From a virus (lineage: Duplodnaviria; Heunggongvirae; Uroviricota; Caudoviricetes), in IMG/VR virus record IMGVR_UViG_2724679073_000002: DNA of 23,679 nt; one strand, written 5' to 3'. The stretch's first letter is position 1; each line of letters starts with the position of its first letter. Shown in pieces: positions 17,575 to 21,108 of this stretch. Both the position numbers and the translations under genes were made by a program. The notes beneath the pieces were generated by a model. That model was given only the letters and a program-made list of their open reading frames with translations. It was not told where the DNA came from and did not search any database.

Positions 17575-19236
17575 TTATATGAAAAAAACCGCATATTCTT
17601 TCTTTTTCGGTTCCGGGTTAAGGGACATCAGGGAGACCGCATTGAACAGCGCCATCAGCGGGTCAATTTTTCCCCGTCCACTGGCCTGTTTGGTGATAAG
17701 AATGGCGTTACCTTTAGGCTCCACCCGGGCATTGCCGACACACCAGGCCATCAGGGGCTGGTCACCATGCACCAGCACCCCTTCAGCCAGTTTGCGCTCG
17801 GTGGTTTTAATGGCCCCGCCCAGTTTCCAGCCCTGGCTTATCCCCACCACAATTCCGTCGGGGATCCCGGCTTCCGCCAGTGAATCCAGAATCTGCCCCA
17901 CCCCTGACGGGTCAATACCGATATGGTCCAGTAACTCAGCCTCATGAATGCGACGCACATATTCCGCCACTTCCGCCGTGTCATCCCCGACACGCCGGAC
18001 AATGGTCATATCTCCACAGGCAACAAGATCCTGAAACCGGGACGCCTCGCTCTTCCGTCGGACCACCGCGGTTTCATGCGCCCAGGCATGGCCCCAGCCC
18101 AGCCATTCGCGGGTCTCCCGGTCACGCCCAATCACATACATCCCCAGCAGATCATCCAGCCCTCCGCCGTCAATCCCCACCGTCACCACATCAGCACGAC
18201 GCAGGATATCGTCCAGGCTGATACAACGGCCCTGCTCTTCCCAGAAATCAGCCCCCGCCCAGCGGTCAGAGCGCAGGGCAAGACCAATTTCCACATTGGC
18301 GTGTTTTGACATGAACCCCCGGAATGTCTCTTCACCGGCTTCCCGGGCTTTACGGTACTCCCGGTACAGAAAGGCCTCATCCACTGAATAGCCGAGATTC
18401 GGATTGACCATGGCGAGGTTTTCCATCAGCAGGTTAGTCCCGCTTTCCACCATTTCAGGAGGGTGTTCAAATATCACCGGCAGAAAGTGCGGATCATGAA
18501 TTTTGCCGTCGCGCACATCCCGGGCGTACTGCAGTTTCTGTCTGAACACCCCGGCGGGCGGTTCATTCGACTGGGTGGTCGTATACACCACAAACCCTTC
18601 CGGGCGGGAGGCAAGGCCGCCTATGGCTTCACGTAACATGTCCTCCGCCTTGCACTGCTTGCCAAACAGCCACAACTCATCAATCAGCGTACCCACGGAC
18701 TTGATACCGGACACCGTATTCGGATCGGCTGCCACCACCTTCAGGGTGGTGTCCGTCACTCGGTGGGTGATGGTCCGGATATGGGTCTGTACCTGGCAGA
18801 GGTCATCCAGATCATCGTCACGTCGTACCATATCCCGGGCAGGGTTGAAGGCGTTGGCCGCCACCTCCACAGTCGGGGCCAGAATCGTGTAACCCGCCGC
18901 CTGCCGCCAGTTCAGTAACAGTGCAGTCATCATGATCCCCGCGGCCAGCGTGGACTTCGAGTTTTTCTTGGGGATAAGGATAAAAACTTCCTTGATATGG
19001 CGTACACCGGTCTGCGCATCGTAGGAGCCAAACAGGGCCGCCACCAGGTCAAACACCCACGGTGCACAGGACTCCCCGAACGTAGGGCTACCAGGTGCAT
19101 CCACAATCCGCAGTTGTTTAAAAATCGCCAGGGCATGTGCGGCCTCGTCCGGATAAATCGGATCCGGAATAATCGACAGCCCCTTTTTCAGGCGCTCTGC
19201 CCAGTCCGGGCAGGCTGTGCTCCATACAGGTATCAT
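17575..19236 (-). CDS. Terminase large subunit, 553 aa
   Basis: Size, position after the small subunit with ATGA overlap, and Walker-A-like region (ILIPKKNSKST) plus C-terminal nuclease-like region. Confidence 0.9.
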   Translation of the reverse strand: MIPVWSTACPDWAERLKKGLSIIPDPIYPDEAAHALAIFKQLRIVDAPGSPTFGESCAPWVFDLVAALFGSYDAQTGVRHIKEVFILIPKKNSKSTLAAGIMMTALLLNWRQAAGYTILAPTVEVAANAFNPARDMVRRDDDLDDLCQVQTHIRTITHRVTDTTLKVVAADPNTVSGIKSVGTLIDELWLFGKQCKAEDMLREAIGGLASRPEGFVVYTTTQSNEPPAGVFRQKLQYARDVRDGKIHDPHFLPVIFEHPPEMVESGTNLLMENLAMVNPNLGYSVDEAFLYREYRKAREAGEETFRGFMSKHANVEIGLALRSDRWAGADFWEEQGRCISLDDILRRADVVTVGIDGGGLDDLLGMYVIGRDRETREWLGWGHAWAHETAVVRRKSEASRFQDLVACGDMTIVRRVGDDTAEVAEYVRRIHEAELLDHIGIDPSGVGQILDSLAEAGIPDGIVVGISQGWKLGGAIKTTERKLAEGVLVHGDQPLMAWCVGNARVEPKGNAILITKQASGRGKIDPLMALFNAVSLMSLNPEPKKKEYAVFFI

Positions 19237-19796
19237 CCGTTGCCCTCATTATCGTTATTCACCACCAGTCGGGGGGGCGGTGGCACCGCAAAACGGTTAG
19301 CCGCTTTTTTCGCGGCATCACCTTTTGCCGATTTTTTCCCGGTATCCCCTTTTTTATGGTGCGTGAACTGCGCCAGACGCCAGGCCGCATCCAGTGCCAG
19401 TTTCGGATCAATGCAGAGGTTTTCCACCAGGATCCGCCCCATGGCTTTCACCGGATCGGGAAGACCATCCTCCATATATTCAATACCAGGAGACATCACC
19501 GCGGACGGTGGCATCTCCAGATTGTTTTCGTCCGGCTGTGGTATTGCAGCCGCCTCACGGCGACGGGGTTTATCCTCCTGCTCTGATTTTTTCTGCCGGT
19601 AAACAGGAACCTCATCCACCTCCACCGTCTCGCATTGTTTACGGGCTATAAACGCAAGCACCTCAGGATCTTTTGCCAGCTGCGAGCCTTTAACCCTGGC
19701 GGTCTTCGCCGAATAACCGGCGGCAATGGCTGACGCTGTTTTGTTTTTCCCGGACATGAGCGCCAGCGCAAATTTTCGTTTTTGCGTTGTCAGCAC
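19233..19796 (-). CDS. Terminase small subunit, 187 aa
   Basis: N-terminal HTH-like segment (KNKTASAIAAGYSAKTARVKGSQLAKDPEV) typical of small terminase subunits as recalled; sits between the cos-like region and the large subunit. Confidence 0.8.
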   Translation of the reverse strand: MLTTQKRKFALALMSGKNKTASAIAAGYSAKTARVKGSQLAKDPEVLAFIARKQCETVEVDEVPVYRQKKSEQEDKPRRREAAAIPQPDENNLEMPPSAVMSPGIEYMEDGLPDPVKAMGRILVENLCIDPKLALDAAWRLAQFTHHKKGDTGKKSAKGDAAKKAANRFAVPPPPRLVVNNDNEGNG

Positions 19797-19870
19797 AGCC
19801 TCCTCCCGGGTCCAGAACGCACTCAGCCGGGTATGGTTCAGCCCATTTTTCCCGGCGTCTCATGCCGCAA

Positions 19871-19992
19871 ATGTTAACTGCTGCCTGGTTAACATTTGCT
19901 GAAAAAGCCTGTTAACATTTTTTCCGCACAACAAACTGAATAATAAAGATAAAAACCGCAAAAATGCCCGGGCAGCCAGTTAACATGTTAAC
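19871..19992. promoter_or_regulatory. Cluster of five GTTAACAT/ATGTTAAC 8-mers; candidate terminase recognition (cosB/pac-like) sites
   Basis: ATGTTAAC at 19871; GTTAACAT at 19888, 19911 and 19979; ATGTTAAC at 19985, the last two forming the 14-bp perfect palindrome GTTAACATGTTAAC; located between the HNH gene and the small terminase gene. Confidence 0.4.
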
Positions 19993-20086
19993 TGCCCTGA
20001 AACGGGAATTTTTTCTCTGCGTGAGAGGGGGCGCGGTGTCCAAAGCGATCGTTTTTTACGCCGGATGATACCCCCCCCGGGTTGGG

Positions 20087-20452
20087 TTACAGTCCGATGA
20101 TGTCGTCCTCTCTGCCACTACCTCCGGACACCTCCGGCAGCGTCGGGTCCGGCATACCACTCGCCGCTTCACGAGCAGACTTTTGTCGATGGCATTCGGC
20201 ACAGAGCGTCCAAAGATTCGTCTCCTCATTACCACCACCGAACTGAAGTGCAATTCGGTGATCGAGTTCACTGTCACAGAGGTCAACCACACGACCACAG
20301 ATACAGCACTGCCCGGCGTCCCTCAGCCAGATATGACGCTTGAGGGAAACACGTGCACTGCCACTGACACGACGCTGCTCCCCCTTCAGAATATTCACCC
20401 GTCGGGTATTCAGTGTTTTGATTCTGCTCTGGAGTGTACGAAGCTCAGCCAT
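20087..20452 (-). CDS. HNH endonuclease (terminase-associated type), 121 aa
   Basis: Zinc-finger/HNH-like motifs CCICGRVVD...DHRIALQFGGGNEETNLWTLCAECHRQK; position immediately upstream of cos and terminase, as in HK97-like phages. Confidence 0.85.
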   Translation of the reverse strand: MAELRTLQSRIKTLNTRRVNILKGEQRRVSGSARVSLKRHIWLRDAGQCCICGRVVDLCDSELDHRIALQFGGGNEETNLWTLCAECHRQKSAREAASGMPDPTLPEVSGGSGREDDIIGL

Positions 20453-20493
20453 GTAAAATCCCCGTCATATGGCAATCAGTAAAGGAAATAAAT

Positions 20494-20694
20494 ATGTCAT
20501 CGAAAAACCGGACCCGCAGAACCACAACCCGCAATATCCGTTTCCCCAATCACATAATTGAACAGATCAACATCGCCCTTGAGCATAAAGGGTCCGGTAA
20601 CTTTTCAGCGTGGGTTATTGAAGCCTGCAGGAGAAGGCTGGCAACAGATGCAACGCATCTGCGCCCGGCCAGCATGACAAATAACGAGAAATGA
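20494..20694 (+). CDS. Small ribbon-helix-helix-like DNA-binding protein, 66 aa
   Basis: ATG at 20494 with AAAGGAAA SD; MSSKNRTRRTTTRNIRFPNHIIEQINIALEHKGSGNFSAWVIEACRRRL has basic N-tail, beta-strand, then helices, an RHH-like pattern. The track ORF 20434.. carries a spurious N-terminal extension into the HNH start. Confidence 0.6.
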   Translation: MSSKNRTRRTTTRNIRFPNHIIEQINIALEHKGSGNFSAWVIEACRRRLATDATHLRPASMTNNEK

Positions 20695-20892
20695 ACGTTC
20701 GGTTTCTTCCACCATCGCACCGGACAGGCGACTATGAGGGGACAACGCCGCGCTCCGTTAACGCGGTAAACCCCGGTGTGTATCGTTTTTGATTATCCCC
20801 GCACACTCGCGCAGAGGAGTCTCCCTGTCGGGCTGCGGTCTCTGTTAATGCAGGAATACGGCGACAATACCGCGCATGGATAATAAGGTCGC

Positions 20893-21108
20893 TCAACACA
20901 CTGGCTGTAATACCATGCGGCATTTAGCGGCATTCATCGTACACTCCACGGTTAGCTCTTCATTCGTGGCATTCACCTGAAAGGTCCGGGAGTGTAATTG
21001 CGTACATTTACCACTGAACGAACCTTCAACAAGAACACGACCACGCTGCAAAATACGGAACGGAATTGTTCCCTGAAAAGGTTCTACGGTTACCCGTAAT
21101 TTCTTCAT
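20893..21108 (-). CDS. Hypothetical protein, 71 aa, translationally coupled to Rz
   Basis: ATG overlaps the Rz stop (ATGA); Cys-containing hydrophilic protein [23 protein letters not shown]...; no homology recognised. Confidence 0.45.

Follow-up and report, generated by a model that had tools for sequence, protein, structure and literature searches.

The window analysed here, the whole stretch of 23,679 nucleotides from a virus of the Caudoviricetes (IMG/VR virus record IMGVR_UViG_2724679073_000002), carries its head and packaging genes on the minus strand, in the order lysis genes, HNH endonuclease gene, a 290-bp spacer, terS, terL and a protease-capsid fusion gene. The HNH gene (20087..20452) encodes a protein of 121 amino acids that matches Pfam PF01844 (31.1 bits against a cut-off of 21.4) and is 69% identical to the HNH gene product adjoining terS in Salmonella phage FSL SP-016; its predicted role is that of the accessory nuclease of HK97-type packaging modules. 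The small terminase gene terS (19233..19796) starts with a GTG codon after GGGAGGAGG and encodes 187 amino acids, residues 2-57 of which match Pfam Terminase_2 (PF03592, 36 bits against a gathering cut-off of 26.1). The large terminase gene terL (17575..19236) encodes 553 amino acids with the Pfam domains PF03354 (TerL_ATPase) and PF20441 (TerL_nuclease), and its product is 97% identical to TerL of phage Lys8385Vzw and 23% identical to HK97 gp2 (BLASTP E 2e-11). The identities of the HNH and terS genes agree with those given in a preliminary description of this DNA, which had also delimited the spacer between the HNH and small terminase genes correctly: the HNH stop codon occupies 20087-20089 and the terS GTG starts at 19796, both on the minus strand, which leaves the 290 bp from 19797 to 20086. 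Directly after terL follows an ORF of 645 amino acids (15574-17511, minus strand), in which a prohead protease (Peptidase_S78) and the major capsid protein are joined, and the interval between terL and this fusion holds no portal gene. Just upstream of the HNH gene, on the opposite strand, lies a small DUF3950 gene (20494-20694, plus strand; Pfam E 3e-19), conserved as ORF52 of BP-4795.

In the AlphaFold2 model of TerS, residues 1-56 have pLDDT values of 85-91, the remaining model being of low confidence. A Foldseek search with this N-terminus returned as the top match 4zc3, the DNA-binding domain of the SF6 small terminase, and also 2cmp (probability 1.00, target TM-scores 0.84 / 0.81, 30% identity), with an rmsd of 1.6 A to 4zc3. 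According to the model, the N-terminus of TerS is a helix-turn-helix DNA-binding domain of the SF6 fold.

The spacer is marked by repeats of the motif GTTAACAT, which has exactly five matches on both strands of the whole 23.7-kb window, all inside 122 bp (19871-19992): 19871-19878 (minus), 19888-19895 (plus), 19911-19918 (plus), 19979-19986 (plus) and 19985-19992 (minus). One hundred dinucleotide-preserving shuffles gave a mean of 0.43 copies and a maximum of three, and five copies were reached in none of them. The window-wide search confirms the earlier count of five copies of an 8-mer in both orientations, and the 14-bp palindrome reported with it, GTTAACATGTTAAC at 19979-19992, is also present, as the core of a longer one that is perfect over 18 bp, CAGTTAACATGTTAACTG at 19977-19994. 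A repeat search likewise recovered the 11-bp direct repeat ATGTTAACTGC at 19871 and 19985, and it revealed in addition an inverted repeat with perfect 12-bp arms, GCAAATGTTAAC / GTTAACATTTGC, at 19867-19878 and 19888-19899. Between the palindrome and the other copies, an A/T-rich segment (19919..19970, minus strand) with T5 tracts about 10 nt apart (CATTTTTGCGGTTTTTATCTTTATTATT...GGAAAAAA) can be read from the sequence, and it is possible that this segment serves as a bendable linker between the palindrome and the distal sites. The IHF consensus WATCAANNNNTTR, searched with at most one mismatch, has no match in 19797-20086, and any bending is therefore conjecture.

The preliminary description took the spacer for a cos or packaging region, a view supported by the gene identities and by the termini of Lys8385Vzw, a phage with a TerL 97% identical, whose virion ends map inside the homologous spacer. 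Termini mapping elsewhere, which that description named as a refutation, are thus not what this relative shows. According to PhageTerm analysis of virion reads, Lys8385Vzw is a cos phage whose cohesive ends, of 3' polarity, have the sequence CGCCCCCCCT (PMC7946995). The Lys8385Vzw record ends with ...GGACACCGCCCCCCCT and begins with CTCACGCAGAGAAAAAATTCCC..., followed by all five motifs, and this junction is homologous to the window junction 20026/20025. The homologous 10 nt of the window, CGCGCCCCCT, differ from CGCCCCCCCT at one base in ten, in a column that is polymorphic among relatives, and the flanks are identical. The text of the same paper places cos at 'base pairs 50,977-50,953' of a 50,953-bp genome, an apparent typographical error, and the record has the 10-mer as its last 10 bases.

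A tblastn search with TerS led to Burkholderia phages whose records start just upstream of the homologous terS. In the Bcep176 record the counterpart of the window 10-mer, CGCACGTTCC in gene orientation, is found twice, once at each terminus; the records of two further Burkholderia phages break 2 and 4 nt from the homologous position. Aligned to the window, the Bcep176 ends predict GGACAC/CGCGCCCCCT/CTCACGC (slashes marking the boundaries), for which Lys8385Vzw provides independent support. The hammerhead ribozyme of the Bcep176 papers lies elsewhere in that genome and is unrelated to cos. The cut, which could not be found by eye in the preliminary description, is thus placed to the base by homology to the published termini of a near-identical phage: the predicted cosN occupies 20026..20035 (minus strand) with CGCGCCCCCT as its 10-nt 3' cohesive end, the gene strand being nicked, by prediction, between 20026 and 20025 and the other strand between 20036 and 20035. 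Two Pseudomonas phage records, BR52a and BR161c, are partial assemblies; the break in BR52a lies at most 3 nt from the position given by the rule that the terS ATG stands at +40, and lends weak support to the cut position.

With +1 set at window position 20025, the terS GTG stands at +230 and the five motifs lie 34-155 nt inside the chromosome end adjoining terS. The dyad, formed by the 18-bp palindrome (19977..19994, no strand), has its two overlapping motif copies at +34..+47. The third copy (ATGTTAAC in gene orientation; 19911..19918, minus strand) stands at +108..+115, and the fourth (19888-19895) and fifth (19871-19878), at +131..+138 and +148..+155, are the arms of the 12-bp inverted repeat (19867..19899, no strand), which is interrupted by a 9-nt gap. 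The motifs lie where a cosB would, between cosN and terS and on the terS-side end.

Two further elements flank the predicted cut. On the HNH side, a run of eight G (C8 on the plus strand; 20071..20078, minus strand) stands at -53..-46 from the gene-strand nick and is conserved across lineages: each of the 16 compared has a G-run at -55..-43, and in HK97 a G9 run occupies -51..-43. On the terS side, the alignment of relatives reveals a conserved block, CTCACGCAGAGAAAAAAT, at +1..+18 (20008..20025, minus strand), which includes an A6 tract at +12..+17 and whose consensus over about 240 related loci is, from +1, CTCACGC[AG][CG]AGAAAAAAT. With no more than 5 mismatches the block recurs in Enterobacterales, in Burkholderiales and in further lineages; it is kept also where TerS has another N-terminal module. 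Conservation of both elements reaches from E. coli to Burkholderia, and that of the G-run also to HK97. The A6 block and the G-run may be read by TerL and HNH, or by a conserved TerS core. In PPompW-type prophages (locus L175, 2775-4233), an IS110-family element, ISEc20, lies in the G-run (window position about 20074) adjoining cosN; the upstream HNH and lysis genes are gone, and tRNA genes and Q follow directly after the IS. These copies are probably packaging-defective.

The spacer is widespread among phages of E. coli. It is present with 95-100% identity in 94 phage records, including BP-4795, 2851, YYZ-2008, 1717 and many Stx1a and Stx2c phages. Of 5426 complete E. coli genomes, 1277 contain it, at up to 7 copies each. 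No cos is annotated in the record of either BP-4795 or 2851; literature searches with the palindrome, block or overhang sequences returned nothing relevant, and a search for BP-4795 or Stx phages together with cos terms returned no description of this cos. A partial match to the spacer in H180 reflects only an IS1 insertion or deletion. In five chromosome records (CP107153, AP040186, CP049118, OZ121072 and CM185023) the spacer lies about 560 nt from the record end, so that the record boundary falls at terL; it looks as if start-fixing software had picked the prophage terL and not dnaA.

Among close relatives, the 43 distinct spacer variants show no variable column within the motifs (0 of 38), against 78 of 252 columns (31%) in the rest of the spacer (Fisher p = 5e-6, in a test that takes columns as independent and ignores the kinship of the sequences). 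The third copy is invariant in all 43 variants, as are the fourth and the fifth among close relatives. The preliminary description had expected the repeats to recur in related phages with the same terminase, and this held in part: all five copies stand at fixed offsets in every relative whose TerL is at least 92% identical, whereas more distant members of the same terminase family keep the dyad alone, at the same distance from cosN. Thus, the dyad is the ancestral site and the other three copies are a lineage-specific expansion.

The position of the dyad was followed through about 240 related loci gathered from viral contigs and species genomes, which are a sample of the terminase family. From the start of the conserved block to the terS ATG the distance is 38-39 nt in most lineages, and the ATG is enclosed in a near-palindrome, whose form is [GA]T[AT]AAC-ATG-TTAAC in Enterobacterales, while Burkholderiales and their relatives have TTGTTA-ATGGC-TTTAAC. 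The terS ATG stands at this dyad position (+39/+40), within [GA]T[AT]AAC-ATG-TTAAC, in FSL SP-016, in 78 of 79 relatives of the TerS of locus L065 and in 31 species genomes. Phage FSL SP-016, with a TerL 83% and a TerS 49% identical to those of the window, represents the short form, with a spacer of 106 nt. The central ATG of the window palindrome (19984-19986) falls exactly at the start position of terS in these relatives, and it is therefore a fossil start codon, about 190 bp before the present GTG. On the minus strand this ATG opens a hydrophobic ORF of 24 codons, MLTGCPGIFAVFIFIIQFVVRKKC (19912-19986). A small protein made from the fossil start (MLTGCPGIFAVFIFIIQFVVRKKC) was considered and rejected, as relative L046 has a 1-nt deletion that shifts the frame, and the ORF is probably not a gene.

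Loci with a displaced terS start allow the dyad to be separated from the start codon. Of 31 species genomes with canonical spacing, 29 have TTAAC within the opening 15 nt of terS; of six with a displaced start, none does (Fisher p = 1.2e-5); the same pattern, with TTAAC missing from the new start, is seen in the window and in loci L065 and L058. In the displaced-start loci the dyad itself stays at the canonical +34..+47. By sequence comparison, the dyad is tied to cosN and not to translation. The constraint on it likewise acts at the DNA level and is not a by-product of coding: the third codon of terS, a leucine codon, is TTA in 31 of 38 high-GC loci (82%), against 18 of 1874 (1.0%) for the other leucine codons of their terS and terL genes.

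Other lineages with long spacers also carry extra copies of their own motif variant, namely L163 (three copies of TGTTAAAGC), L141, L157 and L165. In the phage collection searched, homologues of the segment of about 190 bp inserted in the window are confined to this E. coli group. A search of this segment for signs of a transposon or MITE origin found no convincing terminal inverted repeats, only the flanking pair ATGTTAAC / GTGCTGAC.

In a few lineages the motif itself has changed. Locus L065 has TGTACA at +35, +41, +108 and +130, to be compared with the window sites at +34, +42, +110 and +133, and the DNA between the sites does not align. The TGTACA variant comes from one contig: exact palindromes of this type occur in 10 viral contigs, of which only the L065 contig itself has them in a cos context, and a TerS-based scan for a second TGTACA locus yielded 78 canonical loci and no second example. 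A more extensive change is seen in relatives whose TerS shares the C-terminal ~75 residues (E 2e-11) and has a Gly/Arg-rich peptide in place of the helix-turn-helix; these loci keep the G-run and the block, and A[AT]TCAAA direct repeats replace the GTTAAC dyad. At equal TerL divergence (about 69% identical), loci L070-L074 have GTTAA and loci L076-L083 have AATCAAA. The second TerS type, represented by L069, L076, L077, L078, L079 and L083, has an AT-hook-like N-terminus, MAGVKGRSGG..GAGRKP, with no Pfam match, and its A[AT]TCAAA direct repeats end at the ATG of terS. Loci L058, L059 and L116 show another arrangement, with GTTAAC-type repeats at -106 and -63 from the predicted nick, on the HNH side of the G-run, and three copies of GGTTAACC inside the terS coding sequence, at +230, +242 and +254. 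Their repeats thus lie on both sides of the cut, in a way reminiscent of pacL and pacR.

One known system with which the locus can be compared is that of HK97, in which TerS binds a single 15-bp site with an A-tract at +15..+29 through an 'arginine clamp', and cleavage is stimulated by the HNH protein and leaves 10-nt 3' overhangs (PMC11331095). In both systems cos is immediately bordered by the HNH gene on its upstream side and by terS on its downstream side, with a short A/T tract after the cut, and the TerL proteins are distantly homologous (E 2e-11); cohesive ends of 10 nt with 3' polarity are found in HK97 and in Lys8385Vzw, the relative of the window. The HK97 record ends with ...CAGGGGGGGGGATC...TGAC CGCCGCCAAA and begins with GTTTGAATTT..., its last 10 nt being assumed to be the overhang from the deposit convention. 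On this assumption the overhang boundary has the form ...AC/CGC... in both (TGAC/CGCCGCCAAA in HK97, ACAC/CGCGCCCCCT in the window). The alignment with HK97 cos proposed in the preliminary description accordingly shows a similar HNH side in the 16 lineages compared, in the G-run as well as in the AC/CGC boundary.

The terS side differs. TerS of the window is not homologous to HK97 gp1 by BLASTP (E 0.3), and HK97 gp1 has no Pfam match. While gp1 is without a defined helix-turn-helix and uses one site, the window has an SF6-like predicted helix-turn-helix, a candidate dyad and three further copies, spread over +34..+155. The locus has the HNH placement, the TerL type and the HNH-side layout of an HK97-type module, together with its kind of ends as judged by homology, and lacks a TerS of the gp1 type. 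Lys8385Vzw, BP-4795, 2851 and the Stx1a and Stx2c phages with the same head module carry the same element as the window.

The arrangement of the motifs also recalls lambda, where cosB consists of R3-I1-R2-R1 between cosN and Nu1, has an IHF site between the repeats and adjoins ends with a 12-nt 5' overhang. As in lambda, a short motif is present in several copies and both orientations between the cut and the small terminase gene, at the end packaged first, with an A/T-rich stretch in between. The window differs from lambda in having no IHF consensus, a Terminase_2 protein and not Nu1, 10-nt 3' ends (as established for the close relative) and an HNH partner. In SPP1 and SF6 the cut site is surrounded by short repeated boxes (pacL/pacR), spread over more than 100 bp, which serve in recognition; the G1P proteins of these phages belong to the same TerS family as that of the window, with the same N-terminal DNA-binding fold. 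To go by the title of a 2016 study by Greive cited in PMC11331095, the helix-turn-helix contacts of SF6, the best-studied Terminase_2 protein, are reportedly sequence-independent, so that specific recognition of the motifs by such a domain is not an established fact. Packaging in SPP1 and SF6 is of the headful (pac) type and yields no unique ends, unlike that of the window system, with its defined cohesive ends and HNH partner. Headful packaging does not fit the locus: the close relative Lys8385Vzw is classed by PhageTerm as a cos phage with 3' cohesive ends (PMC7946995).

Taken as a whole, the spacer is a real cos region, that of an HK97-type module in a lambdoid E. coli prophage, in which the five motifs are likely to form a cosB-like TerS array. 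At 20026-20035, TerL together with the HNH protein would cleave the concatemers and leave 10-nt 3' cohesive ends, and the five GTTAACAT copies would act like cosB and be read by the N-terminal helix-turn-helix domains of a ring-shaped TerS oligomer. The proposal made in the preliminary description, that the motifs are candidate small-terminase sites, finds support in the comparison of relatives. The peripheral helix-turn-helix domains of TerS could bind the dyad and the three distal sites, the A/T-rich segment with phased T-tracts (19919-19970) may let the DNA bend, and TerS on the array would anchor the terminase beside cosN and confer packaging specificity. Bound TerS would then position TerL and HNH at cosN, staggered nicks would give the 10-nt 3' ends, and packaging would run from the cut end toward terS and beyond. 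Binding of the motifs by TerS, bending or wrapping of the DNA and the assignment of each nick to a protein are the steps that we infer; the gene identities, the motif statistics, the comparative patterns and, by homology to published termini, the position of the cut are established here or in the literature. As to its history, the palindrome is the ancestral site, after which an insertion of about 190 bp moved the terS start downstream and added three sites.

This reading has to be weighed against one in which the spacer is still cos and the GTTAACAT copies are bound by another protein (HNH, TerL, a host nucleoid protein or a phage regulator), TerS reading the A6 block near the cut. The HK97 TerS site at +15..+29 includes an A-tract, and the A6 tract of the window lies at +12..+17, so that the block could be the true TerS site; both the block and the C-terminal core of TerS are conserved in all lineages, and helix-turn-helix binding by SF6 is reported to be independent of sequence. 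However, between loci of equal TerL divergence (L070-L074 against L076-L083) a different N-terminal module of TerS goes with a different motif type, and the window TerS has a well-defined helix-turn-helix in the model and no homology to HK97 gp1 (E 0.3). Another protein as the reader of the motifs therefore seems improbable.

It is quite improbable that the repeats are regulators of terS and not packaging sites, either as an operator or autoregulatory site over the ancestral start or as hairpins in a late mRNA, even though the dyad overlaps the Shine-Dalgarno sequence and ATG of terS in most relatives, copies 4 and 5 form a perfect 12-bp hairpin, and one weak promoter-like match on the plus strand is made of the motifs themselves. 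Where the start is displaced, the dyad remains at its cosN-fixed distance and the new start loses TTAAC. Moreover, the RNA fold of the whole spacer is not significant (z = -1.5), the spacer has no terminator-like site, positions 19000-21000 have no Rfam match at E up to 1, and in locus L063 the hairpin has a change in one arm (GCAAAT to GAAAAT) that the other arm does not compensate. It is possible that the repeats have a dual role, in regulation and in packaging. FSL SP-016 and similar relatives have no distal copies, which are thus not required throughout the family, and the 190-bp segment is confined to this E. coli group in the phage collection; the three distal copies might accordingly have no function and be left over from the insertion or duplication by which the terS start was displaced, so that cosN, and perhaps the dyad, would be all that matters. 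We consider this very improbable, since the motif columns are invariant in 43 variants while the columns around them vary, extra copies are also carried by the long-spacer lineages L141, L157, L163 and L165, and L065 sets its different motif at the same offsets.

Beyond the TerS array itself, the comparison suggests a more general scheme, which we put forward tentatively and hold to be somewhat less than an even chance. In this widespread terminase family a TerS recognition dyad would be built into the start of terS, overriding codon usage; several lineages, the present E. coli one among them, may have freed the start separately by inserting 25-200 bp with extra motifs at a conserved geometry; and swaps of the TerS N-terminus or of its specificity (GTTAAC to TGTACA; helix-turn-helix to Gly/Arg with AATCAAA) would retarget packaging. 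If this is true, it would be a naturally modular, re-programmable system of packaging specificity.

As elements of this kind are well known and the cut of a near-identical phage has been published, the advance lies in detail and not in concept. Many Stx1 and Stx2c phages share this head and packaging module, which about one quarter of complete E. coli genomes contain, often in several copies. Knowledge of the cut allows virion ends to be assigned in assemblies, and the dyad, the distal sites and the N-terminal swaps offer a simple test system for the choice of DNA by helix-turn-helix small terminases, which is still debated. The exact cut, together with the likely recognition sites, may also tell which prophages, defective prophages and satellites a given helper can package.
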